Below are positions 9,142 to 36,099 of a stretch of 64,000 bases of DNA, piece after piece. The notes beneath the pieces were generated by a model. It had not been told where the DNA came from. It made no database searches and saw nothing but the letters and a program-made list of their open reading frames with translations. Each line of letters opens with the position of its first letter. Position 1 is the first letter of the stretch. Source of the DNA: Naegleria gruberi. Taxonomy: Eukaryota. The stretch lies in NCBI GenBank assembly GCA_000004985.1, contig GG738899.1. The stretch is one strand, 5' to 3'. A program made the position numbers and the translations under genes.

Positions 9142-12100
9142 ATGCTTCCATTTCCGCACAGGTTGTCTTATTTGTGTTTGTTATTTCTCTTCTTGGTACT
9201 CTTTACCCACCACAGCAACACAACAAACACTTTCTATCCTGTTGAATATTCTATGGAAGCAATTGTTGGCAACAGTCCAAATAGTACTTGGCATGCTTTG
9301 GATTACTTCTTCAAAGTAATACCTTCTTTCCGAGAGCCTGATAGATTCATCTACGTTCATGCAGCCAGAATGGGTGATGGTAAATTCAGTCTTCATAAAT
9401 TTGATAAATTAGAAGGAAATTATCAAAATATTGCTCCTGATGTGATGTATTTCACACTTGTTGCTCACATAACAGATGACAACTCTGTCCATGATGTGCT
9501 TTATTATGCTACCGATTCTACATGTACTTTTTACAAGTATAACGAAACAAACAACTCAACCACAAAAATTGCTGGTAATGGAGTTTGTGATACAAATTGC
9601 AATGCACGTGAAAAGCAATATAATGAGAGTCTTTGCAGGGGTTATTTAATGTCTTATCCACATAAATTCAATAATGAGAGTGAATTGTCCTTCTACTTAT
9701 ATGGTGGACAAGAAATTTATCGATTGAAGAATAATTTGGTACAGATTGTGGCAGGTCATGGAAAATCAACTTCCTTAGAAGATCAACCAGCAACAAATGT
9801 TACATTGGGTATATCTGGAACTTGTACCAACTCACTTGGAGAGATTTATATACTACAAAATTATCGAGAAGGAACAGGATATTATATTAGAAAGATTTAT
9901 CCAAATGGTATAATTACTACTGTCCTTTCGTTGATGGGAAATTATGCATATTCTGGTACTTGTTTGTTTGATAGTACTGTTTACGAGGTGGAAAATAAGA
10001 AAATGGTGTTGGATAGGTTATATATTTACGAACATCCAGCATCTACTGTAACAAAGTTTGAGCTTACTTTCGAATATCCAAACACTGGAAAGCCAACATT
10101 GCTTAATTATTCACAAACTACTCTAATTGGAAAATATAACTCTTTTGTACAAGCTGGAGATGGTGGCAAAGCAATCGATGGCAGAATTAGTACTGTAAAT
10201 GTCGACGCTTTTGATGGATTTGTTGCACTTTCTGCTCTGGGTAATGTTAGATTTATTGACAATCAAACTGGAATAATATCAGAGGTACTTTCGGCAAAAG
10301 GACATGGATTTTACACAGCAATTAATAATTTCAAATTCATACCAAAGGATATTATTTACTCTTACAATGAGGGAAATCCAGAAATTCACATAGCTGACCA
10401 TGTCTCATCTTCAATTTTGAAATATTCTTTGAAGAGCAAGAGTATGGAGCCAATGAAAAAGTATTTTATTAGCGATTTGAATAATGCCCCATCTACAGCA
10501 AAACCCTACTCTATGGCATTGGATTCCTATTCTAATTTACTTGTTTCTAATGATTTAAGCTATTGGAGCCCCAACTTTTTAGTTAATATAACCAAACTTG
10601 GACCAAAGGTGATATTTGGACAAAACAAAAAAATTGATGATTCTATTAGTTTGGATTCCTCAATATTGGGTAGGCCCTATTCCAGTTTTTTCATTATGTA
10701 CAATCAGGCGTACTATAGCATAGTTTCAGACAGAGGCAACAATAGACTCTTGCTTATTGACTTTGATGGAAGGAATATTACAACAATAGCTAGTATGAAA
10801 GATGGTATCAATGGACCAACTGGTATTTGCTATCTGAGCGATAGAAGTATGGTGATATTTTCAGATACTGGTAATCACGTCTTGAGATATTACAATATTA
10901 GGACACGTGAATTGGGAATATTTGCTGGAAGATTAGGAAAGAAAGGATTTACTGAAGGTTCTTTGCTCAACGCAACATTCAATCAAGTAAGTTTTAAAAT
11001 GAAACCAAACTAATTATACTAACTCAAAACACAGCCTGTTGGATTATCTTGCACTTTAGATAAAATTCTTGTGGCTGATTCTCATAATCATGCAATCAGA
11101 TTAATCAATATATATGCAAGCACTGTGGAAACTATTGCAGGAACTGGTAAGTGTTTTTGTTACAAAATTAAAGATCTTAATGCTCAATTCAGGAGAGGAA
11201 GGTTTTAATGGAGATTTCTTGGTACCTTTGAGTACTACATTCAATAATCCAATGGGAGTTTGCTTCCAAGAGCGTAATATTATAGTTGCTGACACGAATA
11301 ATCATAGAGTTAGAGTTATTGATGTAAACAACAGATATGTTTCCACAATCGCAGGATCTTTTTTGGATGGAGATAGTGGAGATGAAGGATTGGCCTCAAA
11401 AAGTTTACTCAATTCACCTCATGATGTTCAATATGAAGATAATGTAGTTTATATTGCTGGTATGTTTCAGGTATTTTTTGTTCAAGCTTCTAATCATTTC
11501 AGATTCTGGAAATAACAAAATTAGAGTAATTAAAGACCAAACTATTAGTTCCTTAATAGGGAGAAGTGGTAATTCTGGATTTGAGGGAGATGGAGGTCCT
11601 GGTTTAACAGCAAAGCTCAATTTCCCAACAGGATTGAGTCTTTCTACGAAATATATTGTAATTTCTGATTCAAAGAATAATAGACTTAGATTTTATTTAA
11701 AAGAAGAAAAAACTATTTATACATTAGCGGGTGGTTTTGGAGATAATGGGCCATCTGAGAATGGTATTGGAACACCGTTCGGAGTTACAATCTCTCCAAA
11801 CAATGAAATTTATGTCTCAGATGTGTTGAATAATTTAATTAGACGAATTAAGAATGGAAAAATTACAACAGTAGCAGGTTCTGGAGCATATGGATATAAT
11901 GGCGATGATATTAGTGCATTGAAAGCTTCTTTGGCATCACCTTCGAACATTGTTGTCAATCCTCTAACAAATGACATTATATTTTCAGATACAAACAATC
12001 ATAGAATTCGAATAATTTACAGTGACGGAAATATATCTACATTGGCTGGAACTGGACAAGCAGGTTATAATGGTGATGGAGTGGCTTCAGCTACTCACCT

Positions 12101-14057
12101 CCACTCACCTTCTTTTATCAAATTCATTCCACCACAATTCGAAGTGATAGTTTTTTCTGATTCTGCAAATGGAAGAATACGAAAGATTAGCAAGGTGAAT
12201 AATATTTATATGGTATCGACAATTGCAGGACCTCCTGACTTGATTGGAGTACCTGAGGGATTATCAATTTCAAACGAAGGAGATGTATATTTTGCAGATT
12301 CAAAGAATTTAAGAATTTCAAAACTAATTCCAACCTGTCAACCAGGATATGTACTCAATTTGGAAAAAACAAAGTGTATTCCTATTTGCTATGATATTTC
12401 GGCCCTTGATCCTTCCTCTTGCTCCAGTCATGGAAGTTGCATCGATAGAAACAATTGCCAATGCATGAATGGATATACTGGAAATTCCTGTCAATATTCA
12501 ATCTGTCATGGAATTTCTGGACAAAATATTAGTGTTTGCTCATATTCGGGAACTTGTGTATCTCCAAATAAGTGTGAATGTGTTTCAGGCTATGCTGGAG
12601 ATCAGTGTGAATTACCTACTTGTTTTGGAAAAACTGGAAGAGAGGGTTGTAATAATCGTGGAAAGTGCCATGCTAGAAATTTTTGCATTTGTGAAAATGG
12701 TTATGCAGGAACAACGTGTGAAACAAATGTAATATTGATTGGCTCTCTAGTTGCGGTCTTTGCTGTTGCATTGATTATTATTGGCATTGTGGTGTTAATT
12801 TTAATATTTGTCTTTTCCAAATATAGGAAACAGAAGAAGATTATTGATACCGATCTTACACTGGATGAGAGATTGTTATCACAAACTGAATTGGAAATTA
12901 GCAATACAAGTTCTAATCGTACATATCATCAAGAAGAAGACAAGTTTATCATTCCAATTGAACAATTGAATATGGATAAACCAATTAAAGTAAGTATAGC
13001 AAAGGAAATCAACATTAACAAATTTAACCTATTTTACACAGAGACTTGGAGAAGGAGGAATGGGAAGCGTATTCATGACCAAATATAATGGAATGAAGAT
13101 TGCTGTCAAAGTATTTGATTTGAACAATTTTAACATTTCCGAAGATGATTTCAAGATTGAAGCAATTTTATTAAGCAAGCTTAGACATCCAAACATTATC
13201 AACTTCTATGGCATATCGTCTACACCTACAAAGAGATTCATAGCAATGGAGGTAAGTTTCAATTATTTCCACGAGTGAAAACTGAACTATTTGAAATATA
13301 ATCACAGTGTATGGACAAGAGCTTGGAGTCCATGATTAGTTCACTGCAAAAAGGTACCTCTACATGTTCTCTTAAAATGAAACTATCCATTATTCTAAAT
13401 GTAGTGAGTGGTATCAATTATTTACATCATTTGGAGCCTAATTTTATTATTCATAGGTATGTTTTCACAAAGTGGCCTTTCACAATTTCTTATTGAATTA
13501 TATATAGAGATTTAAAACCAGCAAATATTCTCTTGGATAAAAATGGAATTGCAAAATTGTGTGACTTTGGATTGGGAAGGGCATTATCTTCCAATACAGT
13601 ATCAGCAATCACTAGTAAGGTTGGAACATATAATTATATGTCGCCAGAACTTTTCTCAGATGATATAGAAAGAGGAGATGCTCGATCAATTGATATTTAC
13701 AGTTTAGCCATCATTCTATGGCAACTCGTATTCGAAATTATGGAACCATATCAAAGCTCGGATACAAAAGTTCTTCAAAAATTGAATTTGGAAAAACCAA
13801 AAACCTTTAACAGCACTTATCATTTCCACAAAAGTATCTGTGAAGAGAAATTGAGACCAATTATTCCATTTTCCACATTGGAGGAATGTCGTGAGTGGTG
13901 TGAAAAATTCCTAGACCAAGAACAAGCCAAGTACTATGAGGTAATTTATGAGATGAGTCAATTGATTGAACAATCGTGGAGTCATGAGCCAAGTAAGAGA
14001 CCAACAAGTGTTCAGATTTTGGAAAAGATTGAGGAATGGGATGAACGAGTTTTGTAA
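9142..14057 (+). CDS. receptor-like protein kinase: signal peptide, N-terminal domain, NHL repeats, tenascin-type EGF repeats, TM helix, TKL-type kinase (7 exons)
   Basis: Exons are 9142-10986, 11035-11146, 11193-11459, 11503-12989, 13042-13251, 13308-13456 and 13508-14057. Introns are 42-56 nt, GTAAGT/GTATGT to AG. Splicing restores NHL motifs (DSHNHAIRLI, AGTGGEEGFNGD, VYIADSGNNKIRV). EGF repeats have the form CxxxGxCxxxNxCxCxxGYxGxxCxxxxC. The TM is LIGSLVAVFAVALIIIGIVVLILIFVF. The kinase shows the glycine loop LGEGGMGSVF, AVK, HRDLKPANILLD, DFG and YMSPE. Joins track ORFs 9142, 11114, 11454, 13060, 13311 and 13533. Confidence 0.75.
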
Positions 14058-14921: not shown

Positions 14922-16490
14922 ATGCAAGAAGCACATGAGGGAAATAACATTGAAGGAGTTTCGACTTCTGTAGAATTAGAAATTGTTGATAGTAATAATA
15001 ATAATAATGGAGAGCAACAACATGATGTAGAGGTGGTGGCGAGGAATGAAGAACAATCGACGCAGCATCAACAACAACAACAACAGTTTAATGTAATGAT
15101 AGAAGAAGAATCTCCTCAAGCTTCGAATAAGCCAATCACATATTACGAATCTTCACCAACAGCCATTGATAATAATTCTTCAATAACAACAACAACAACA
15201 AATAAGAAAAAGGTTAAATTACCTCCTCCAATGATAACCAAAAGCATTCAAACTAAGCAATGGCAAGTTGACTTCTCCAAGTTTCCCATAATCGAAACTG
15301 ACAAGGCAACTAAACTTAAAAAGCGAGTTTCCAAATTTTACGAAAAGCAAAACGAACTGGTTGAAGGTTTTGCTGATTTATATACGAATACCATTACGAA
15401 AGATTTTCTGGTAGACGGAGAAGACGGATATTTAGAATTGAACGACGAGCTTAAGGAAGAAAATCCAATTGACTCTTCAGCAAAGGACGATAGATATGCA
15501 AACTTTTGCATTCAAGCAAGTTTTTGGGTGAATATCTTGTTATTGTTTTTAAAGGTTTCAGCTAGTTTCTTATCAATTTCACTATCAGTTATTACTTCAA
15601 CTGTAGATTCGATTCTTGACATTGTTTCTGGGCTAATCCTTGTGTATACGAATCATTTGAGAAAAAAGAAGGGAGATTCTCACAAATATCCAGTTGGTAA
15701 GGATAGATTAGAACCACTGAGTTTCATTATTTTTGCAACATGCATGGCAACTGCAAGTCTTCAAATTATTAAGGAAGGTGTTGTGACAATTATTCAAGGA
15801 TTAGTGACAGGAGATCCATATTTACCTGCAAATAATGAAAACTTGATCAGTTGGAGTTCTCAACCAGAAACTCTTTCAGGTGAAATGGAATGGATGCTTG
15901 GAATCAAAGTTCCTGCCACCTTCAAGTTATTTGCCTATTCCTACAGTTTGGCTGTCATGTTGGTTGCTGTCGTTTTGAAAACCATCTTGTATTTCTTGTG
16001 TATTAGAGCTAAATCTGCTTCATGTGAAGCCTATGCCTTCGATCACAGAAATGATGTGCTCAGTAACTCATTCCTAGTTGCCTCCCTTTTCATTTCAATG
16101 TGGGCTTGGTGGGTTGATCCATTCAGTGCAACAGTTCTCTCCTGTTATATTATCTATGGATGGGTAGGTGAATCAATGGAACATGTGACCAAGCTTGTTG
16201 GTTTATCAGCTGAAAGTGATCTCATTCAGAAATTGACATTTATTGCTTACAACCATTGTGAAAAAATTGTTAAAGTTGATTTGGTCACTGCTTGGTATAG
16301 TGGAATGAATATTATTGCTGAAATTCATGTTGTCTTGCCACCTGACATGTCACTTAAGGAAGCACACAATATTGGAGCCAAGTTACAGACAAAGATTGAA
16401 TCTGTTCCAGAAGTGGAAAGATGTTTCGTCCATTTGGATTTCAACGACACTCACAAGAATGAAAGATCATTAATTGGAAAAGATGTATAA
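14922..16490 (+). CDS. cation diffusion facilitator (CDF) transporter, Mn-type (DxxxD motifs), with N-terminal polyQ/N tail
   Basis: 522-aa single exon. TM2 has STVDSILD (DxxxD) and TM5 has FDHRND (DxxxD), characteristic of the Mn-CDF/MTP8-11 group. About 6 TM helices and a C-terminal cytoplasmic domain. The N-terminal region contains (CAA)n-encoded QQQQQQ and NNNNN runs. Confidence 0.7.
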   Translation: MQEAHEGNNIEGVSTSVELEIVDSNNNNNGEQQHDVEVVARNEEQSTQHQQQQQQFNVMIEEESPQASNKPITYYESSPTAIDNNSSITTTTTNKKKVKLPPPMITKSIQTKQWQVDFSKFPIIETDKATKLKKRVSKFYEKQNELVEGFADLYTNTITKDFLVDGEDGYLELNDELKEENPIDSSAKDDRYANFCIQASFWVNILLLFLKVSASFLSISLSVITSTVDSILDIVSGLILVYTNHLRKKKGDSHKYPVGKDRLEPLSFIIFATCMATASLQIIKEGVVTIIQGLVTGDPYLPANNENLISWSSQPETLSGEMEWMLGIKVPATFKLFAYSYSLAVMLVAVVLKTILYFLCIRAKSASCEAYAFDHRNDVLSNSFLVASLFISMWAWWVDPFSATVLSCYIIYGWVGESMEHVTKLVGLSAESDLIQKLTFIAYNHCEKIVKVDLVTAWYSGMNIIAEIHVVLPPDMSLKEAHNIGAKLQTKIESVPEVERCFVHLDFNDTHKNERSLIGKDV

Positions 16491-16563: not shown

Positions 16564-19113
16564 TTACAAATTGAAATGTGGTGTGAACAAGCTCAACAAG
16601 AATGGAATCAAACATAAAATGACCAAAATCAATGGTGTGACTGATGCATTCATTAGAGAAGCACCAGAAGTGGCATTTCTATTCAAAGATCCAGTTGGAA
16701 TTGTTGAATTGTTACCATTATTGTCATTATTTCCAATGGTGGTTTGACATTGAGCTCCAGTATGTTTGGAATCACATGTGCAGGTGTCATTCTTGAGACA
16801 AGTACCAAATCCAGAGCAAACAGTGGCTGAAGTATTTGAAATTCCATAACAAACAACAACTGGTTGACTTGGTTGAGTAATGGTAGTTTCACATTTGGCT
16901 CCAGTATGCTTTGAATCACATGTACAAGTATTGTTTTTGACACAGGTGCCGAATCCAGAACAAACACTTGGTGAACTACTCAAAATTCCATAACAAACAA
17001 TCACTGGTTGAGCAATCACATTTTCACACTTTACACCAGTATGTTTGGAATCACATGTGCAGGTATCATTCTTGAGACAAGTTCCAAATCCAGAGCAAAC
17101 GCTTGGTGATGTGCTCAAAATTCCATAACAGACAATTGGAATGGTATTTTCACATTTAGAGCCTGTGTGAGATGAATCACAAGTACATGTATCATTCTTT
17201 AAACATTTACCAAATCCAGAACAGACAGCAGCTGAAGTATTTGAAATTCCATAACACATAATCACTGGTTGACTTGGTTGAGTGATGGTATTTTCACATT
17301 TGGCTCCAGAATGAGATGCATCACAAGTACATGTATCATTCTTTAAACATTTACCAAATCCAGAACAAACAGCAGCTGAAGTATTGGAAATTCCATAACA
17401 AACAACAACAACTGGTGGGTTATTATTGTTGCTATTCACATTAAAGGATGGAACAACCAATAAACTTGCACTTCTTGCATCCAATGAAACAGTTACCTTA
17501 CCATCAACTGAGCTAGTAGTCAGAGTTTGAGAATTCTTTGAAATAGTTCCAGGAGAAACAAATGTCCAAGTGGTGATGGATTTGCTCTTTCCAACGTCAC
17601 CTGCCAATTGTAAACTAACACTTGAAGCTGAAGTTAACTTGTTCACAAGGACAATGTACAATGTATTTGAGGCAGAGTTGACAAATGAGTAAGCTCCAAC
17701 ACTGTCAACATTTGAACTAGTGGTATTGACATAGGCTCCATTAATGCCAGCTCCCTTTCCGTCATAATTCATTAAAAATTGGAATGATTTCTCAACCATT
17801 GAACCACTTTTTGGAACTGTAAAACGAGTTGCCAAATCAACTCCTTCTCTACCAAAAATGGTTAAAATTTCAACTTGGGCCAAAGCAGAAGACCAAAGAT
17901 TGTCAGCTCCAAAATTATATTCAGTAATGGCCAACTTCAACTCTGGACAATACTTGGCAATGGATGCTTTCATACGTGGAATGAGTGCAACCCTTGAAAG
18001 TGGTCCATTAGATTCAGCATCAGTAATCCAACTTTCATCAACATAATTAAAATCATACAAGCTCTTGACAGTTCTCAAACGAAGATCTGAATTCGTATCT
18101 GCTGTTTGAGTGTCATCATAAATTCCACTTGCTTGTGGATAATAGTGAATATCCAAATAGTCAACCAACAAAATTCCAGTATTCTTCTTATATTCACAAA
18201 CCTTTGTCAAGTAATAATCAATGAGTGGTAAATTGGAATGAGCTTGACGATCAGCACCAGAGGAACAACCATCTGCAGGGGAATAATAATATCCGCAATG
18301 TCCCCATGAATTTGGACCAAATGTCTTGATTGTGGAATCTTCTGTCTTGATTGCTTTGGCATATTTCTCAGTTAAGGTCCACATTTCATCGTAGGTTATT
18401 GGATTTGGATGGACATCATGATGGGTGGAATGCCACAAGTCCATTTCATTATCCAATGACCACAATTTGACAGGTGTTCCTCTACTTTTCATGTATTTGA
18501 TCCAGTTGACTACATAATTTTCATCAATGACTTTTGAAGTTTCTGCTGGATCATTTCCAGTAACATAGATATTACCAGTCTTTTTACCATTACCAGCATC
18601 TCCCATACACCAACTAGGAAAACCAGTTCTAGTACATTCAGTTTCCAATTGACTACCATATTTAGCAACTGAAAAACCCCACTTTTTAGAACGATCATCC
18701 AATGGAGTATAACCAATCAAACTAGCAGTCAGCATCAACTTGGATCCATGCTTATTAGCTGTGTCCATAAACATTGTAGCTGCAGATCCATTCGGCAAAA
18801 TTTGTCCGCTCTCAATTTCGTCTGGAATATTCATGAAAAACCAATCCTGAGCCGTGTTATGAATATTCTGTTGCCAATTATAACGAGTATCTGAATTACC
18901 ACCTTTACGATTGATTGTATATTTAACAGATTGAAAATTGGCTTCTTGTGCGTAGTTGACTCCAAAAATGTCTTGGTTGAGTTGGTTGCCGATTGGGAGG
19001 GAAGAATCAATTTTAACGGTGAGTTGTTGGTGGGTGGGGAAGAGGAGGAAGCAGATGATTGTCAGAAATAACAATCGACATGATGGTGTCAAGAGTTTGT
19101 TGACTAGTGACAT
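16564..19113 (-). CDS. GPI-anchored clan GH-A glycoside hydrolase (GH44-like) with six tenascin-type EGF repeats
   Basis: The start is re-set to ATG at 19111-19113 (MSLVNKLL...signal peptide). The track ORF 16564-19227 begins 38 codons upstream with no Met. The catalytic region has RKGGNSDTRYNW. It has a LDNEMDLW acid/base NE motif and an AITEYNF nucleophile TE motif, as in clan GH-A (beta/alpha)8 retaining glycosidases. Six repeats of the form VCYGISNTSAAVCSGFGKCLKNDTCTCDxxHxGxKCE follow. The Ser-rich C-terminus ends in a hydrophobic tail (NATSGASLMNASVTPLILVILCLIPFLLSLF), consistent with a GPI signal. Confidence 0.65.
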   Translation of the reverse strand: MSLVNKLLTPSCRLLFLTIICFLLFPTHQQLTVKIDSSLPIGNQLNQDIFGVNYAQEANFQSVKYTINRKGGNSDTRYNWQQNIHNTAQDWFFMNIPDEIESGQILPNGSAATMFMDTANKHGSKLMLTASLIGYTPLDDRSKKWGFSVAKYGSQLETECTRTGFPSWCMGDAGNGKKTGNIYVTGNDPAETSKVIDENYVVNWIKYMKSRGTPVKLWSLDNEMDLWHSTHHDVHPNPITYDEMWTLTEKYAKAIKTEDSTIKTFGPNSWGHCGYYYSPADGCSSGADRQAHSNLPLIDYYLTKVCEYKKNTGILLVDYLDIHYYPQASGIYDDTQTADTNSDLRLRTVKSLYDFNYVDESWITDAESNGPLSRVALIPRMKASIAKYCPELKLAITEYNFGADNLWSSALAQVEILTIFGREGVDLATRFTVPKSGSMVEKSFQFLMNYDGKGAGINGAYVNTTSSNVDSVGAYSFVNSASNTLYIVLVNKLTSASSVSLQLAGDVGKSKSITTWTFVSPGTISKNSQTLTTSSVDGKVTVSLDARSASLLVVPSFNVNSNNNNPPVVVVCYGISNTSAAVCSGFGKCLKNDTCTCDASHSGAKCENTITQPSQPVIMCYGISNTSAAVCSGFGKCLKNDTCTCDSSHTGSKCENTIPIVCYGILSTSPSVCSGFGTCLKNDTCTCDSKHTGVKCENVIAQPVIVCYGILSSSPSVCSGFGTCVKNNTCTCDSKHTGAKCETTITQPSQPVVVCYGISNTSATVCSGFGTCLKNDTCTCDSKHTGAQCQTTIGNNDNNGNNSTIPTGSLNRNATSGASLMNASVTPLILVILCLIPFLLSLFTPHFNL
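16720..17380 (-). repeat. tandem coding repeats of about 110-120 bp (EGF modules) with near-identical DNA copies
   Basis: Units such as ccagtatgtttggaatcacatgtgcaggtgtcattcttgagacaagtaccaaatccagagcaaac recur near 16770 and 17040 with 2-3 mismatches. A second unit type (gtacatgtatcattctttaaacatttaccaaatccagaacagacagcagctgaagtat...) recurs near 17190 and 17320. Read directly from the sequence. Confidence 0.7.
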
Positions 19114-19876: not shown

Positions 19877-21763
19877 ATGATGATTCATCGTTTCCTCTTC
19901 CGAAGCAGCAATCCTTTAATATTTTGCATTCTATTCATCCTTGTTACTACTATTTTATTCTCCTCTCATCAAGGTACGATAAATTTTATTTAAATATTAA
20001 TTAATTAAATTAAATTAGCTTATTGTGATGAGAAGAATATTTTGATATTGTCATTACCATTTCCAGGCCATATTCGTCCGAATGTAGAGCTGATGGAATC
20101 CCTTTCAAATTCTCCAACTGTATCGAATATTACTTTGATGACTGTAAAGATTGGAATGATGGCTGATCCTAGATTGAAAAAGTGGTATTCTCAAGTGAAT
20201 GGTACAGACGCAGATAGAAAAGTTCATGTTGCAGTGATGGAGAGTGAGTCATTCTTATCTGAAAGTTCTGATCTTTCATATCTTTACAATGAAATGAGTA
20301 AGATTAGAGATTTGGATGTAATTGACCAATTCAAATTTACTTTCAATAGATTTATGATTCCATACGAACGTTTACTTATTCAAAGTTTGGAAATTGCTGA
20401 AGTTTTAAATGGAAAAGTTATTAATATTGTCCCATTGGAAGAACGTTTACAAAAATTAGCTAAAACTCCCCAAAAAGGTGTCAAGAGATTTATGAGAATT
20501 CGTAATGATCCATCTGAAACTCTATTCGATCAGGCAGTTGTCGATTTTGCTTTGATTTCAATGCAAGCTATCGTTGCTGGAGGAAATATTCCATGCACCA
20601 AGATTTATGCTGCCTACTTTAGACAATTCATGTTCCATTATCCAGCCATTTCGGTTGCTTCGATGGATTATTTCACAACCTACCCAAAGAGATTAATCAT
20701 GCCTTTCAAGGCCCTTAAAGACTTGTTCTTTATTACAGAATACATGGCCGGATTGGGTAGTTATTTTGAAATGGAAGAATTGGGAAAGAGTGATTATTCA
20801 TGTGCCTTGATTCAAACCACCAGTTTTGGATTCGAATATGCTTCAAGTAATGTGCAACAGTTTGGTGCTTTCCTTGTTGGTCCATTCATTAATGATAATC
20901 ACATTGCAAATGAAATTGACCATTTGAAACAATTGGCAGGCACCTCCAACGAAGTTTCCAATAAGTGGACAGAAACTTCTGGCTATGAAGGATTCTTTGA
21001 ATGGGTTGATGAACAACAAGATATCATGCTAATGATTCTTGGATCTACAATGGTTTTAGATGATAATATCATGGCCAAATTGATTAAGGGATTACAAATT
21101 GCCCTCCAAGAAAATCCAAACATTTCCATCATTACTGCATTTGGTCATATTAATATGGATCTTTTTGAAAAGTTGGCACAAACAAATGCTCCACTCGTTC
21201 AATCCGTACTGAACAATAAGAGATTCAAATTATTGAAGGGTTTCGTTCCTCAGAAAGCTTTAATGTCCATCGAGAAGGTCAAAATTTTCTTTACTCACTG
21301 TGGAGCTAACAGTGTAAATGAAGCTCTTTACTTTGGTAAATTGCTGATTGGATTCCCATATGCTTTCGATCAATGGAAGGTAGCTCATACTATTGAAGAA
21401 TTCCAACTTGGACGTGCCATCTATAAATCCAGAGAGGAATCTATGGTATGGAAATCAGAAAGTATTTCACAAGCCATTCACGAATTGCTCTACAATGAAG
21501 AAAAGAGAGAACTCTACAAAACCAAAGCAAGACACACCAAATCTCTCATGAGAAGATCAGGAGGCGTAAAGAGAGCTGCTGAAATTGTCGAAATGGTGTC
21601 GGAAGTTGATGGTGATCTCTCTTGGAAAATTGCAGACAAACACCTCACATGGTGGCAATACTATTGTCTTGATATTGTGTTAGTCTATTCATTCCTCATG
21701 TATCTTGTAGTCAAATTAGCATGCTTGCTTTGTTGCAACAGAAGAAAGGTAAAGAAGGAATAA
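19877..21763 (+). CDS. UDP-glycosyltransferase (GT1 family), signal peptide plus C-terminal TM anchor, 2 exons
   Basis: Exon 1 is 19877-19973 (MMIHRFLFRSSNPLIFCILFILVTTILFSSHQ, signal-like). The intron is GTACGA..TTAG of 45 nt. Exon 2 is 20019-21763. Splicing at 20018 keeps the conserved N-terminal GT1 motif NILILSLPFPGHIRP. The C-terminal signature THCGANSVNEALYFGKLLIGFPYAFDQWKVAHTIEE (HCGxxSxxE...DQ) is present. The terminal TM is VLVYSFLMYLVVKLACLL followed by a lysine-rich tail. Confidence 0.7.
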
Positions 21764-21810: not shown

Positions 21811-23175
21811 TCAATAAATTAAAATCCAAACATTTCCATCTATACCTATTTCACATTTGAATTTAATAGACGTCAATTGTCTCTTATCCTTGTTGAATAC
21901 CTTGAATACAACTCCTTCAGATCCACATTCCAATACTGAAATGAAATCATACTCCTCCTTTAGATCTTTGTAATAAAAATTGAGAATTTCAACTGACTTT
22001 GCAAACTCTCCATGTAATTCGTTATATTTGCCGAGTATTTCTTTGTAATTATCGAAAGTTTTCTCATCTTCCAGCCATTTTGTGGCGAACAGCATCAACT
22101 GTTGGATTTCCTTTTCGGTATAAAATGATGTATCAAACTTTTCTGAAATATATTCCACAACGTACTTCAATTCTTTCACATTAGTTGAAACAGCAGGATT
22201 ATCTTCCATAAATTTATCCAATCTAAAACAAAATAAGTAATAATCAATACTGTCTTCTTGACTAACCTCAATGTTAGATTCTGAATTATTAACTCTCATT
22301 AATATTTGAAATATAATCAACTTTTCCACAAAGCTGGGTGAGTAGTTGCGGTTGAACTTGAACAGAGTCTTCTTTAGTTTTGGATTCATATTTGGCAATT
22401 CGATACAATAAAATAGTTCAGTTTCATCACTGAAATTTTGATATAACTCAATAATATTCCGTGATAATTTGGTTTGGAGATTGTAATGTTCAATAATTTG
22501 TGTTAGATCAGGTGAATATTCTCTTGCTTTTGGTAAATTTTGTTTTGATAATAAATAAATAAATTTGACATTTGACTTCAATGATTCGCTGGCATATATC
22601 AGAGAAAATGCATTTTTCTTAACAGATTCCAATACAATTTCTTCATCTTTTTTAAATATTTCATTGGTATAGTACAGAACTAATCCATTTTTCTTGACAG
22701 CTTCCAAAATAAATTCTCTATCTTTTCGTAACGATTCATTTGCAAAATTGAGTGAAAATTCATTCAATTCAATAGCTTCCAACAAAAACCCTCTATCCCT
22801 TCTCAATGTTGAATTGGCATAATTCAAAGAAAAGCTATACTTTCCAACAGCAGCCAACAATATCTCTCTATCTATCCTAAACGATTCGTCTACAATTTCA
22901 ATTACTGATCCGTCCTGTTGAACAGCTTCCAATGCCAATTCTCTATCCTTCTCCAAGTCAATGGCATATACCAGTGCAAATCCGTTTTTCCTAACTGCCA
23001 ACAATATAAATTCACGATCCTTCCGAAGTGAAATGTTTGCTTTCAAGAGACAAGAACAATCATTGCCAAAGGAGGGAATTTGTTGTAAAACGAATTGTTC
23101 ATTGGACTGGTAAAAGTTGGATTTATGAAAGTTAGTGATCAGAAAATGTTAAATACTAACCCATTGATTTTGCAT
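21811..23175 (-). CDS. DUF4116 repeat protein, 2 exons
   Basis: The track ORF starts at TTG. An upstream acceptor (ttttaccAG) at 23107-23109 joins a 15-nt first exon, 23161-23175 (ATGCAAAATCAATGG, MQNQW), through a 54-nt GTTAGT..CAG intron. The main exon, 21811-23106, carries 8 or more repeats of about 25 aa (KDREFILEAVKKNGLVLYYTNEIFKKD...), the DUF4116 pattern. Stop at 21811-21813. Confidence 0.55.
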
Positions 23176-31212: not shown

Positions 31213-34200
31213 ATGATGATTAGAACGATGACTCTAAATTTCCTTTGCATTGCTTTACCACTAGTTGCATTGCTTTTCATCAGCTCCCAGTGGATTGTCT
31301 TTTCGAAACCTGTCGAATATCAAATAGAAACACTATCAGCCACTTCCCAACCATTGTCTTTTTCCTTCACACTTGGTCGGCAATCTTCATCACAAAACGA
31401 ATTAATTTACTTTCTTTCTTTTTACCAATTATTCGAATTCAACCAAAATGGTGGAAAATTGTCACAATTAATTGGTTGTGATTCCTCTTCATCTGGCAGT
31501 AAATTGTCATGTGAAAGCTTTTCGCATTTCAAGAATGGTGCTAAATTCTCATCTGCCAATCGAACCAATATTTTGTTTTCCAGTTTTCATGTGGACGAAA
31601 GTGATGAAAATCAAATTTATCTTTCCAGTTTTTATCAAATTTATTTATTTAATAAGAGGGAAGGTATTATTACACTACTTTCCGATAAGGATTTTGATAA
31701 AAAAACGAATGCACGAGATGGAATGTTTCTAAACGAAACTGTATTTACTGAAATACGGTCAATTACGAAAGATTTTATTGGAAATATGTTTATTTGTGAT
31801 GATGAAGTAATTTACAAAGTTGGTTTAGATGGAATTTTACGAGAATTGACCTCTCGTGAGGGAACTTCACTTAAAAAACAAAACGGCTATTCGAATCAGA
31901 CTATTCTCCTGAACCCAACTTTTATTTCACATCATAAGGGTTATATATATGGATATGACATATTTTCCATCTTTAAAATCAATATAGAAACAGGTTGGTT
32001 GACTGTTATTTCAGGAAAAGTATTTGGTTCATCATCTGGCACTGATGGACCTGCGTTGGATACCGTAATTTCGCCGAAAGGTCTTTCGTTTCTTCCAGAC
32101 GATTCGATTCTGACATTGGATCATGAATATTTCAAGATTATTAATCAGACAGATGGAATGTTGAGAACACTATTTAAATTAGAAAGTTTCAAGCCAAGTA
32201 CAAGTTCTTTCGTTTTTGGGAATTATTTGATTGGAAATGAAAACAAAATTCTAAAGATTGATTGGTTGGCTGGAAGAGTTTCATTAATTTTGAAAGGAGG
32301 AATAGGTGCTTTTGGAGATGGAGTTAATTTAAAGAATAGATATTTCAAATCAATTTCTGCAATTGCATTTAATGAGTCGAGTGGTGAATTATTTGTTGCC
32401 GATTCATCATCTGAAAATACTTTGGAAAAAATTAACATTTCAAATGGAACGTTGCAAAGCATTTCTCTAACATTTTCGAATGTTTCATGTTGGAATTCAT
32501 CAATAGAGACGAGGAGTGTTATTTCATATAATCCAGTTTCATTGCAAATCAAGGATTCGAATTTGTTTTTGGCAAATACTGGAAGCCAAAGTTCAATTCA
32601 AAAATTTGATCTAGCTCAGAAAGGTGGATCGAGTTGTTTTTATGCAGGTTCAATCAGTAGTGATAGATTATTATCTAGATCTGGACCTCTTTCAGTGATA
32701 ATGAATAATCCAAATGGAATTCATTGTTCACAAGTTTATGATGAAATTTATATTGCAGGTTTGTTTCGCATATTTTGGAAAATCAAATAACTTTCAATAA
32801 TAGATACTGATAATCATCGAATTTTGAAAAGTAGAAGAGGAACAGTGGAAGTTATTGCTGGAAATGGTATTCAAGGTTATTCAGGTAAGTTGCCATTTCT
32901 AATAATTTTATAAATTATAATAAATTTTAAGGTGATGGAGGTTTGGCTATTAATGCTCAGTTAGATAGACCTCATTCAGTTTATTATGAAGGTAGCACAA
33001 GAACTCTGTACATAGCAGACTCTGGTAATCATCGAGTGAGATCTGTACAAATGGATACTGGAATAATTTCAACAATTCTTGGAACTGGAAATTCTGGTTT
33101 CAATGGAGATGATATGAATCCGTTAGAAATTCAACTAAATTTCCCAAAATACGTTGTCCACTCACCAGGATGGGGTCTATTCATTTCAGATAGCAATAAC
33201 CACAGAGTGAGATGGTTAAACAATTCGGTTGTGACTACCATTTTAGGAAGTGGAAATTCTGGTTCAAAAATTGTGACTAACAATCCGACTCTGACTGAGC
33301 TTACTTCACCATTTGGATTATTTTTTGAAGCCTTGGCAAGTACTCTCTACGTTGCAGGTATGTTTCATATGAATTAATTTCAGTGTTTGACAAATTCGTC
33401 TAGATTCGTTCAATCACAGAATTTTATCTGTCTCCCTATTCGATGCAAGATCTGTTTCCATAATAGCAGGAACTAATTCACCTGGTTACAATGGAGATGG
33501 TATGAATCCAACACAAGCCAAGTTATTTCTTCCTAGTTCTGTTTTCATGTTATCTAAATATGAAATTTACATTGCTGATTCGTATAATAATAGAATTAGA
33601 AAGATTAGTAATGGAATTATTTCAACATATGCAATGGCTTCTCAAAAGACAGATCTCAATATACCAATTGGAATGTGTGGATATGGAAATGACCTCTTTA
33701 TTTCAACCGAGAATGAAATAATAGAATTAGTTGGAAGTTATATTTATAAGAAAGTGGGAGGATTAGGAGATGGATTGAACGTCTTCTATGCTCACGTCAA
33801 TCCAACAAAGATTCTCTTCTATCCAGACAATAGAATGTTAATTTCAGAATCAAGTACGAATAGAATTCGATTGGTGAATGAAAATGGAACGATTTCAACA
33901 ATTGCTGGAACTGGTAAATTTGGATATGGAGGAGATACAAGTGAGGCCAATGTTGCCATACTTGCTTCACCGACTGGTCTGTCATTTAGCCCTAATCATT
34001 CCACAGTTTACTTTGCCGATTCCTCCAATAATCGTATCAGAAAATTGGTTTCGGATTTGGTTTTCCTTGTTGCTGGCACAGGGGATGCTGGAAAATCCTC
34101 ATCAACCGATCCTTTTCAATCCAAATTCAATAATCCTAGACTAATTGCCACTCTCACCAATGGAGACGTTGTAATTGGAGATACTCTGTCCAATGAAATT

Positions 34201-36099
34201 CGAATTATTTCCAATAAGGAAGGAACAATTCGAACAATTGCTGATATCACAGCAGCCACCGACATGATTTCCACACAAAACAATACTCTCTACATCTCCA
34301 CCAATGAACAGATCATCAAGGCAACTCCACGCTGTGAAACAGGATTCCAATTAGTGAAACAAAACACTGAATGTGTTCCAATTTGTTATGGAATGTTTGA
34401 GAGTGGAATGGTTTGTTCAAGTCGTGGTGAATGCACTTCTCCAGATAATTGCAAATGTTGGAATGGATTATACACGGGAAAGGAATGTGAAATTCCAATT
34501 TGTTTTGGGATCTCTGCAAATGATCCTAATGTATGCTCGTATGGAAATGGAACTTGCATGATCAATAACAAGTGTCAATGTTTGGATGGATTTTATGGAG
34601 AAACTTGTCAATTTCCAATTTGTTTTTCTAAAATAATTGGAGAATCATGTGGTGGACCAAGCAGAGGAGCTTGCACCAATAAGGATGTTTGTAAATGTGG
34701 TCAATTTTACACTGGCGAACAATGCCAATACCGAATGTGTCAAGGAAAGAGTGAAATAGACAAATCTGTATGTAGTGGACATGGAAAATGCCAAGCTAAT
34801 GGAAGATGTGAATGTGACACTCTTTATATTGGAGATGATTGTTCCAATATGTCACAAATTTATGGATTGAGCATTGCTTCTGCACTCATTATTGTTATCC
34901 TCACTACAATGTTGGTAGTTTCTCTCATTTTGGGAGTAATCGTCTATAGGAAGAATAGGCGAGAGAAGAAAATAATCGAAACTGAACTCTCACTTGATGA
35001 AAGATTATTATCCTCAACTGATATATATGAAATGTCTCTATCTCACGGTTCATTAGCATCGCATGCTACTGTATCAACTGAAGATGCTTCTTCCTTCGTG
35101 ATTCCACTTCACAAGATTGGAATGGATAAACCAATTAAGGTTAGTTTCAAATTAATTATTCTATTAACAATTGAATCTTGATAAATTAATTTAACACAGA
35201 GACTTGGAGAAGGTGGAATGGGAAGTGTTTTTATGACCAAATTTAATGGAATGACAGTTGCTGTCAAGGTCTTTGATTTGAATAACTTGAATATTTCAGA
35301 GGAGGATTTCAAGAATGAAGCAATAGTATTAAGCAAACTTCGTCATCCAAATATTATTAACTTTTATGGAATTTCTACATCACCAACTAAACGATACATT
35401 ATCATGGAATGTTTGGATCAGAGCTTGGAGAAGGTAATTGCCAAATTGGAAATGAAACAATTATCTTTCACACTCGAACAAAAATTGAGAATGTTGCTGA
35501 ATATTGCTAATGGAATTGAATATTTGCATTTTTTGAAACCGAGGAGGATTATTCATCGCGATTTGAAAACAGCTAATATTCTACTAGACTCGAATGGAAA
35601 CTGCAAGGTTTGTGACTTTGGGTTGAGTAAATCCATTTCACAAGCAACTGTTTCCGCACTTACTAATCAATTGGGTACACATTTTTATATGGCTCCAGAA
35701 TTATTCGATATCAAACCGATTGATCCGACCTATGCCACATCAGTTGATATCTACAGTTTTTCTATTATCATGTGGCAATTACTATTCGAAATTAAGGATC
35801 CCTATCTCAGTAAATCTCCAGAAATATTGAGAAAGCTTGGAACTACCTCAATTCTTGAACAAGTAACTTCCTACCAATTGACCAAAATGATTTGTGAGAA
35901 CAACCACAGACCAAGCATTCCTTTCAATTCCATTGAATCATGCCATGAATGGTGTTTCGAATACATGCCTTCCTCCCAAGACGAATCTCCTCAAATCTTT
36001 GCACTTTCCCAATTAATCCAAGAATGTTGGCAAACTGATCCAAAACTCCGACCAAACATTGAACAAGTTATCCAACACCTTCAATCCCTACTCACCTAA
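31213..36099 (+). CDS. receptor-like protein kinase, paralog of 9142-14057: signal peptide, N-terminal domain, NHL repeats, EGF repeats, TM, TKL kinase (5 exons)
   Basis: Start at ATG 31213 (MMIRTMTLNFLCIALPLVALLFISS). Exons are 31213-32758, 32804-32884, 32932-33357, 33404-35139 and 35200-36099. Introns are 45-60 nt, GTTTGT/GTAAGT/GTATGT/GTTAGT to AG. Splicing restores NHL motifs (YIADTDNHRI, GYSGGDGGLA, YVADSFNHRI, IYIADSYNNRIR). There are 5-6 EGF repeats and the TM IASALIIVILTTMLVVSLILGVIVY. Kinase motifs are LGEGGMGSVF, AVK, HRDLKTANILLD, DFG and YMAPE. Joins track ORFs 31168, 32943, 33502 and 35218. Confidence 0.75.

Follow-up and report, generated by a model that had tools for sequence, protein, structure and literature searches.

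Introduction

Glycoside hydrolase family 44 (GH44) is a bacterial family of plant-cell-wall enzymes with a recently recognized basidiomycete branch; the eukaryotic members discussed in the literature searched are basidiomycete (and putative chytrid) xyloglucanases, for which a bacterial origin by transfer has been suggested (PMC8741620, PMC11655419). A retaining mechanism has been demonstrated for CtCel44A, as cited in PMC3190823. In PpXG44 the proton donor is Glu-187 and the nucleophile Glu-358 (Ariza et al., PMC3190823), and the acid/base NEP motif of GH44 is common to clan GH-A (PMC3190823). The characterized bacterial enzymes are found in cellulosomal or multi-enzyme proteins together with carbohydrate-binding modules (CBM), FN3 domains or dockerins (PMC3190823); none of them is membrane-anchored. 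The present analysis concerns a window of 64,000 nucleotides (nt) from Naegleria gruberi (contig GG738899.1 of assembly GCA_000004985.1), this being the whole stretch of DNA that was analyzed, and within it a gene for a bacterial-type GH44 enzyme with an apparent surface tether made of five epidermal growth factor (EGF) modules and a lipid-anchor signal. To our knowledge, fungal GH44s are secreted soluble enzymes lacking EGF modules and glycosylphosphatidylinositol (GPI) signals.

Glycosidases held at the cell surface are familiar from other families. The mammalian hyaluronidase PH-20/SPAM1 consists of a GH56 domain, an EGF-like domain and a GPI anchor; fungal Gas1 combines GH72 with a Cys-rich CBM43, a Ser-rich stalk and a GPI anchor; and KORRIGAN of plants is a membrane-anchored GH9 endoglucanase. 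As proposed for the N. gruberi protein, these systems fix a glycosidase to the outside of the cell, with a lipid or membrane anchor and a module that is Cys-rich or EGF-like, but they come from unrelated families and lineages and possess one EGF-like or Cys-rich module rather than five in tandem. The likeness is best regarded as convergent design and not as homology.

The explanation that we consider likely, taken as a whole, is that the gene encodes a surface-anchored, retaining GH44 endo-β-1,4-glucanase or xyloglucanase of ancient bacterial origin, whose EGF stalk was amplified in N. gruberi. The GH44-EGF-GPI-like architecture is new for GH44, because the characterized members are soluble or cellulosomal bacterial proteins or secreted basidiomycete ones (PMC3190823, PMC8741620, PMC11655419); neither the family of the enzyme nor its modules nor the principle of its anchoring is new in itself. 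A literature search returned no substantive link of Naegleria to GH44 or to endoglucanases of its own.

Gene and Reading Frame

The frame is open on the minus strand from 19263; its first ATG lies at 19113 (MSLVNKLL...) and its TAA stop at 16564-16566. The coordinates given in an earlier note on this DNA, 16564-19113, are exact, and the frame between them is free of stops. No intron is required; the 849-amino acid open reading frame (ORF) runs unbroken across all junctions. Its translation (19113-16567) is 100% identical over the full length to an NCBI/UniRef entry named "predicted protein" of Naegleria gruberi (P0001), for which the database record places the gene on a 331-kb scaffold. The succession of enzyme, EGF modules and C-terminal GPI-like signal, which had been proposed from the letters alone, is borne out at the genomic level as one uninterrupted ORF. 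The GC content of the window is 31-40%.

GH44 Catalytic Domain

The catalytic region matches PF12891 (Glyco_hydro_44) with E=6.8e-69 and 232.7 bits against a cutoff of 25.1; the match extends over residues 85-328 and takes in profile positions 2-223 of 223. A phmmer search against all PDB chains returned GH44 enzymes only. The best of these was CelM2 (3ii1/3fw6; E=2e-76, residues 42-556), and further matches included C. thermocellum Cel44A (E approximately 1e-45), C. acetobutylicum EG-A and Paenibacillus XG44. Alignments to 3ii1, 2e0p, 3ik2 and 2yih cover the barrel and the β-sandwich alike. An AlphaFold2 model, built on a 50-sequence alignment, exhibited predicted local distance difference test (pLDDT) values mostly above 90 over residues 30-556, with the first strand of the domain beginning at residue 31. 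When this model was compared with the PDB using Foldseek, the top 10 matches were all GH44, with template modeling scores normalized to the target, TM(target), of 0.77-0.91. CelM2 gave TM(target) 0.90-0.91 and a root-mean-square deviation of 2.4-2.8 Å, with E=1.4e-52 and TM(target) 0.90 for its entry 3fw6. The next structural matches were barrel-plus-sandwich enzymes of GH79, GH51 and GH30 (E approximately 1e-17).

The three motifs singled out in the earlier note, RKGGNSDTRYNW, LDNEMDLW and AITEYNF, are all present and are genuine motifs of the GH44 family. The first has its counterparts in "hryggnntsrynw" of CelM2 and "krfggnrttgynw" of Cel44A; R69, G71, G72 and N73 are the same in all 50 sequences, and conservation reaches 90% or more at T76, R77, Y78 and W80. 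LDNEMDLW occupies residues 220-227 (window 18433-18456), where E223 is aligned to the Glu in Cel44A of C. thermocellum ("sidnEpalw"), for which the variant-sequence entries 2eex, 2ej1 and 2eqd have Gln; D221, N222 and E223 are invariant. AITEYNF (residues 395-401, window 17911-17931) corresponds to AITEYNWG in CelM2 and AITEYDYG in Cel44A, with E398 and Y399 invariant. The family profile, the fold, the acid/base Glu and the nucleophile Glu thus all assign the protein to GH44, and what had been described as a likeness to this family is, by Pfam, PDB matches, structure and both catalytic glutamates, bona fide membership. The accompanying label of a clan GH-A retaining (β/α)8 glycosidase is fair if worded as "GH-A-like," because the closest structural neighbors outside the family are GH79, GH51 and GH30 and the N-E-x motif is held in common.

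One residue weighs against the functional reading. Met follows the acid/base Glu where Pro is canonical, so that NEP reads NEM, and a GH44 domain that has lost catalysis could serve an EGF-stalked surface receptor in adhesion or in the binding of carbohydrate; the architecture is indeed like that of adhesion-type surface proteins elsewhere in the window. We find such a loss of catalysis very improbable. Both catalytic glutamates and approximately 70 other positions are invariant among the 50 homologues, which include presumably active bacterial enzymes, and the surroundings of the active site are strongly conserved in a paralogue that is 75% identical (P0002, see below). The residue after the Glu is, moreover, variable among the amoebal relatives: NEM is also found in the N. 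gruberi paralogue and in N. lovaniensis, and P, W or F stands at that site elsewhere in the clade. Because the position varies in this manner (P, M, W, F), the change from Pro to Met after E223 is probably tolerated.

The solved structure closest to the domain is that of CelM2 (3FW6/3II1), a bifunctional glucanase-xylanase from an uncultured bacterium, at 31% identity and a TM of 0.90. The two proteins have in common the barrel and sandwich and the motifs LDNE(P/M)xxW, AITEYN(W/F)G and RxGGN...YNW. CelM2 differs in being soluble and bacterial, in having neither EGF modules nor eukaryotic secretion or anchor signals, and in possessing NEP instead of NEM. The enzymes of C. thermocellum (Cel44A, also CelJ), C. 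acetobutylicum and Paenibacillus polymyxa (XG44) share family, fold and catalytic pair at 23-25% identity.

Relatives and Evolutionary Origin

After the query itself, the best match was a second N. gruberi protein (P0002; 597 residues, 75% identical). It was followed by N. lovaniensis P0003 (53%), Willaertia magna P0005 (53%) and the metagenomic proteins P0004, P0006 and P0007 (49-58%), and then by approximately 1000 bacterial or metagenomic proteins at 42-51% identity, the named ones belonging to Thermoanaerobaculia, Vicinamibacteria, other Acidobacteria and Myxococcota. The contigs of P0004, P0006 and P0007 are taken to be eukaryotic because they also encode RhoGAP, P450, WAC/WSD, CFAP161, Ras and Arf proteins. 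BLASTP alignment of P0001 with P0002 is collinear up to residue 562, at which point P0002 passes straight into its C-terminal tail, and conservation between the two is strong around the active site. Within the amoebal clade the catalytic domains of P0002-P0007 are 48-77% identical; where P0001 has its EGF stalk, the other members have either none (P0002) or low-complexity linkers rich in Ser, Pro, Lys and Asn.

An unrooted neighbor-joining (NJ) distance tree of 36 taxa (505 columns, 100 bootstraps) unites the seven eukaryotic GH44s in one clade (100/100), to which the bacterial relatives are 46-49% identical; the N. gruberi pair P0001-P0002 is likewise recovered in 100/100 bootstraps. The GC content at third codon positions (GC3) of the GH44 part is 0.29, compared to 0.29-0.33 in neighboring genes. 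This host-like composition, together with the overwhelmingly bacterial membership of the family, points to a probable old transfer of the catalytic domain from a bacterium to a heterolobosean. Bacterial contamination was rejected as an explanation, given the host-like GC3, the eukaryotic signals, and the presence of orthologues in other heteroloboseans and on eukaryotic contigs.

Two GH44 copies are found in N. gruberi and a single one each in Willaertia and N. lovaniensis. In a database that includes N. fowleri proteins, a search yielded no homologue from that species, even when the query was the protein of N. lovaniensis, which suggests that this pathogen has lost the gene.

In P0006 (L002 5001-7127) and P0007 (L003 115-2961) one to three N-terminal modules of approximately 110 residues were observed, with the pattern "FTITPQ..(E/D)WWFQFSP..C.." and no Pfam match; they may represent an undescribed carbohydrate-binding module.

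Secretion Signal and Anchoring

The N-terminus displays a basic n-region (K6 and R13), a 12-residue hydrophobic core (LLFLTIICFLLF) and then PTHQQ, and AlphaFold places a helix at residues 10-23. An equivalent N-terminus is found in all the eukaryotic GH44 homologues. The C-terminus is ordered ...NATSGASLMNASVTP-LILVILCLIPFLLSLF-TPHFNL: the small triplets SGA/GAS are followed by a spacer of 8-9 residues, a hydrophobic stretch of 16 residues (mean Kyte-Doolittle 3.1) and six non-basic residues, at which the protein ends; AlphaFold predicts a helix at 826-843. Signal peptide and GPI-type tail were judged by inspection and rule-based scan only. A GPI-attachment signal canonically has this layout, and the mature protein would accordingly carry a lipid anchor. 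The stalk (residues 557-820) contains 11 N-x-S/T sequons, compared to two in the 527-residue catalytic region. "Evidence of GPI-anchored proteins" has been reported in the Naegleria pangenome (PMC9928731).

A GPI-type tail, defined by small residues, a short spacer and a hydrophobic stretch no more than six residues from the C-terminus, is present in six of the seven eukaryotic GH44s. The seventh, P0007, clearly possesses a transmembrane segment and a basic cytosolic tail. No comparable anchor tail was found in the bacterial GH44 homologues that were compared. EGF modules were found in none of the other six eukaryotic proteins, P0001 of N. gruberi being the only one to carry them. Since six of seven clade members have the tail and one has the EGF modules, surface tethering is presumably a conserved and functional feature of the amoebal GH44 clade, and the EGF stalk is best read as a recent, N. 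gruberi-specific elaboration of one paralogue.

The hydrophobic stretch and its 6-residue tail could also serve as a transmembrane anchor, which is a point against lipid anchoring. The same enzyme would then be a type-I membrane protein, held by its C-terminal hydrophobic helix, with six residues in the cytosol and no GPI. In keeping with such an anchor, L828-F843 are 16 hydrophobic residues in predicted helical conformation, and P0007 sets a precedent within the clade. However, 16 residues interrupted by Pro are short for a span of the plasma membrane, no basic stop-transfer residue follows them, and the SGA/GAS triplets precede them by 8-9 residues, a distance that matches canonical GPI signals; in addition, four homologues stop exactly at the hydrophobic stretch and have no tail. 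A membrane-helix anchor is therefore considered unlikely, and GPI attachment remains the reading that we prefer.

EGF Array and its Repeats

The stalk contains exactly five units of the pattern C-x10-C-x5-C-x6-C-x-C-x7-C and is otherwise free of cysteine. Pfam EGF_2 (82.8 bits, cutoff 22.1) and EGF_Teneurin (63.3 bits, cutoff 24.3) each match it in five stretches. A count of six modules, as previously put forward, is thus rejected by both the cysteine pattern and Pfam in favor of five. At the DNA level Tandem Repeats Finder (TRF) reports a tandem array at 16729-17412 with a period of 144, 5.0 copies and 74% matches; TRF and a repeat finder together give five copies, which recur at periods of 126-144 nt and match the reference copy at 70-80%.

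Pairwise nucleotide identities were calculated over the 105-nt cores from Cys1 to Cys6. Units 1 and 2 are the closest of all pairs (91.4%; 96/105), followed by units 3 and 5 (84.8%); the remaining eight pairs range from 70.5 to 81% ungapped, or from 72 to 81% with a gapped aligner. Protein identity among the five is 69-91%. Of the first 81 nt, 79 are the same in units 1 and 2, and of the last 24 nt seven differ, with 48 nt as the longest exact run; under random placement of the differences, clustering of this degree has a probability of approximately 0.03. Codon identity was assessed at positions that encode the same amino acid, with the expectation taken from local codon usage. Identical codons are in clear excess in two pairs only, namely 1-2 (28/32 compared to 14.9 expected) and 3-5 (25/29 compared to 13.5), whereas pairs such as 2-3 (15/28 compared to 13.2) and 3-4 (17/31 compared to 14.0) are at the level of saturation.

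The array would therefore be of mixed age, with the excess of synonymous identity confined to pairs 1-2 and 3-5: old duplicates kept alike by selection at the protein level would stand beside younger duplications, one or two in number, or tracts of partial conversion. It follows that "near-identical" DNA copies, the wording of the earlier note, is an overstatement, as is "very recent" duplication, given that the two pairs with synonymous excess are themselves 9-15% diverged. The contrast drawn at the same time with a giant gene in the window was qualitatively right: taken over pairs of units, nucleotide identity has a median of 79.5% in the GH44 gene, compared to 65.8% for ten EGF units from the giant ORF.

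Tandem repeats with units of 126-144 nt are a well-known source of errors in assembly and the sequence rests on one assembly, so that an artefact has to be considered, either as collapse or expansion of the array or as the joining of a bacterial contaminant to an amoebal EGF gene. Collapse or expansion is unlikely because all five units can be told apart, their maximum identity being 91%. The units differ by 9-30% in DNA, so each can be placed individually, and the ORF is uninterrupted over all junctions. The GH44 part possesses a host-like GC3 (0.29) and a eukaryotic signal peptide, has orthologues or paralogues in N. lovaniensis, Willaertia and eukaryotic metagenome contigs, and belongs to a gene that the database record places on a 331-kb scaffold. 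An artefact of the array or of the whole fusion is very unlikely in the light of these data.

A 94-residue ORF with a GTG start (16683-16967, minus strand) lies inside the EGF array in a frame that differs from that of the GH44 gene. It is most likely a by-product of repeat composition and no gene.

The Same EGF Type Elsewhere

The module "CYG(I/L)...CSG.G.C...C.C...TG..C" also occurs in three other genes of the window, the EGF modules of which are 30-45% identical to those of the GH44 gene. In two of these genes, which encode NHL-repeat-EGF-transmembrane proteins (11454-13088 and 33502-35181, both on the plus strand), the EGFs stand directly before the membrane anchor. The third is a giant ORF that runs on the plus strand from 52611 to beyond 63998 (at least 3796 residues) and contains 17 Big_9 domains, cadherin-like domains, a VWA domain and at least ten teneurin-type EGF modules; it leaves the window within its EGF array, so that its anchor is outside the view. 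Its closest pair of EGF units, 3 and 5, is 97% identical in protein and 85% in DNA. The "bacterial" Ig and cadherin modules that make up most of it suggest a very large surface protein of the adhesion type. Because the EGFs adjoin the membrane anchor in both NHL proteins, this module may be a standard membrane-proximal stalk of Naegleria surface proteins.

An exhaustive HMMER search of 1.84 billion representative proteins found no close donor of the EGF array; its 1119 matches reach an identity of at most 47%. They are mostly proteins of 1000-7000 residues, the most similar named one being an N. fowleri GPS-domain protein. As the five units are 69-91% alike among themselves at the protein level and at most 47% alike to EGF arrays elsewhere, the simplest history would be capture of a single unit, followed by internal amplification or later homogenization.

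The NHL-EGF-transmembrane pair was observed to have a single transmembrane segment per protein, which gives a teneurin-like ectodomain logic in a protist. Two motifs, KKII[DE]T[DE]L[TS]LDERLLS and F[IV]IP..MDKPIKVS, recur in their cytoplasmic tails, and these proteins may thus form a receptor family that shares one intracellular partner.

Proposed Mechanism and Evolution

The computation establishes membership of the family, the fold, the catalytic residues, the number of modules, the relationships of the repeats, the structure of the clade and the conservation of the tail. Enzymatic activity, substrate, GPI attachment, surface location and biological role are deduced from these results, and the following scheme is proposed. 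The precursor would enter the endoplasmic reticulum via its signal peptide, and its C-terminal hydrophobic peptide would be exchanged for a GPI anchor at approximately S816/G817 or, less likely, be kept as a membrane anchor. The stalk, with its five teneurin-type EGF modules, is probably N-glycosylated. The enzyme would thus be exposed on the outside of the Naegleria plasma membrane, where a rigid EGF stalk would keep the catalytic cleft some distance off the membrane. There it would cut β-1,4-glucan backbones (cellulose-like glucans, xyloglucan and possibly xylan or mixed glucans) by a double-displacement retaining mechanism, with Glu223 as acid/base and Glu398 as nucleophile.

With regard to its history, the catalytic domain would have passed from bacteria, the nearest being of Acidobacteriota type, to an ancestor of Naegleria and Willaertia, and have fully adopted the base composition of its host. 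The transferred gene presumably gained eukaryotic secretion and anchoring signals, which were then conserved across the amoebal clade. After a duplication specific to N. gruberi, one copy would have acquired, between the β-sandwich and the anchor signal, an EGF unit of a kind that is widespread among the surface proteins of Naegleria. This unit would have been amplified in tandem to five, pairs 1-2 and 3-5 being the youngest duplicates or partial conversion tracts.

Besides the NEM motif and the possible membrane helix, several points weigh against this scheme. Characterized GH44s span endoglucanases, xyloglucanases and glucanase-xylanases, so that the substrate is unreadable from sequence (PMC3190823). 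The AlphaFold pLDDT is below 50 for residues 570-827, where the alignment is without depth, and the EGF fold rests on the cysteine pattern and Pfam. The tree is a distance tree from the 120 best hits, without fungal GH44s or deep bacterial sampling, and the donor lineage and direction of transfer are deduced rather than demonstrated.

Biological Role

The enzyme probably serves to digest, on contact, β-glucans that are present in the environment or associated with prey, and does not have an essential function in the cyst wall. Feeding is favored because the gene behaves as an accessory one, with a varying copy number and no N. fowleri homologue found, and because support in the literature for cellulose in Naegleria cyst walls was not found.

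The main biological rival is remodeling of the amoeba's own wall, in which GH44 would trim cyst-wall β-1,4-glucan, possibly as a transglycosylase, in the manner of KORRIGAN or of the GPI-anchored Gas and Crh enzymes of fungi. Membrane tethering is a hallmark of wall-remodeling glycosidases in fungi and plants, and it is conserved throughout the amoebal clade; retaining glycoside hydrolases are, furthermore, capable of transglycosylation. On the other hand, N. fowleri forms cysts, though the database search, which covered N. fowleri proteins, yielded no homologue of the enzyme from it, and a literature search returned no statement of cellulose or cellulose synthase in Naegleria cyst walls. Differences in copy number and stalk type between close species also fit an accessory gene. 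Own-wall remodeling is thus rated as improbable, though less so than a dead enzyme, and digestion of external glucans is the role that we favor.

Implications

If correct, the presence of a monophyletic and apparently surface-anchored GH44 clade in bacterivorous amoeboflagellates would extend the family to Discoba. It would also provide a clear candidate for transfer from a bacterium to a protist, followed by "domestication" through the addition of signals for secretion and GPI attachment and of an EGF stalk. The suggested attack on β-1,4-glucans at the Naegleria surface bears on the grazing of cellulose-containing biofilms or detritus, and the apparent absence from N. fowleri would mark GH44 as part of a free-living toolkit and not of the core cyst programme. 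The EGF array may serve as a compact example of how a stalk grows when its units are duplicated and partly converted. These findings neither change a paradigm nor introduce a new mechanism.

A bolder version, which we put forward as possible rather than probable, is that a hitherto undescribed clade of bacterial-derived GH44s in heteroloboseans (Naegleria, Willaertia and uncultured relatives) has turned into GPI-anchored ectoenzymes, the first members of the family to be membrane-tethered and the first to be reported beyond bacteria and fungi. These would cut cellulose or xyloglucan matrices (biofilm cellulose, plant and algal detritus) on contact during grazing; their stalks would evolve rapidly, with EGF capture and five-fold amplification in N. 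gruberi, and the enzyme would have been lost in N. fowleri.

Features and Neighboring Genes

The coordinates of the features of the GH44 gene are presented in Table 1.

Table 1. Features of the N. gruberi GH44 gene, with positions in the window and the basis of each assignment.
Feature	Residues	Position	Strand	Basis or remark
Complete single-exon coding sequence, GH44-EGF5-GPI-signal protein		16564..19113	minus	849 codons + TAA stop
Predicted signal peptide (MSLVNKLLTPSCRLLFLTIICFLLFPTHQ)	approximately 1-29	19027..19113	minus	read by inspection
GH44 (β/α)8 barrel + β-sandwich	30-556	17446..19026	minus	Pfam, phmmer, AlphaFold, Foldseek
RKGGNSDTRYNW motif, conserved N-terminal GH44 motif	69-80	18874..18909	minus	alignment to solved GH44s
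Glu223 codon, predicted general acid/base (L-D-N-E-M-D-L-W)	223	18445..18447	minus	alignment to Cel44A
Glu398 codon, predicted catalytic nucleophile (A-I-T-E-Y-N-F)	398	17920..17922	minus	alignment to CelM2, Cel44A
Asn/Pro linker FNVNSNNNNPP	557-567	17413..17445	minus	collinearity with the EGF-less paralogue stops here
EGF module 1 (Cys1-Cys6)	572-606	17296..17400	minus	cysteine pattern, Pfam
EGF module 2	620-654	17152..17256	minus	91.4% nt identical to module 1
EGF module 3	662-696	17026..17130	minus	84.8% nt identical to module 5
EGF module 4	707-741	16891..16995	minus	cysteine pattern
EGF module 5	755-789	16747..16851	minus	cysteine pattern
Asn-rich linker with N-glycosylation sequons; candidate omega site S816-G817-A818 or G817-A818-S819	796-823	16645..16728	minus	rule-based scan
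C-terminal hydrophobic GPI-attachment-type signal (LILVILCLIPFLLSLF + TPHFNL)	824-849	16567..16644	minus	rule-based scan

Three further genes were observed around this locus. A gene of the cation-diffusion-facilitator (zinc transporter) type (14922-16490, plus strand) is convergent with the GH44 gene, the two stop codons being separated by 73 nt. On the other side, upstream of the GH44 gene and divergent from it, lies a UDP-glycosyltransferase-like gene (20042-21763, plus strand), the product of which has a C-terminal hydrophobic segment. It is followed by a gene (21811-23046, minus strand) for a protein of DUF4116 repeats (4 stretches, E=1e-46), a repeat family without known function.

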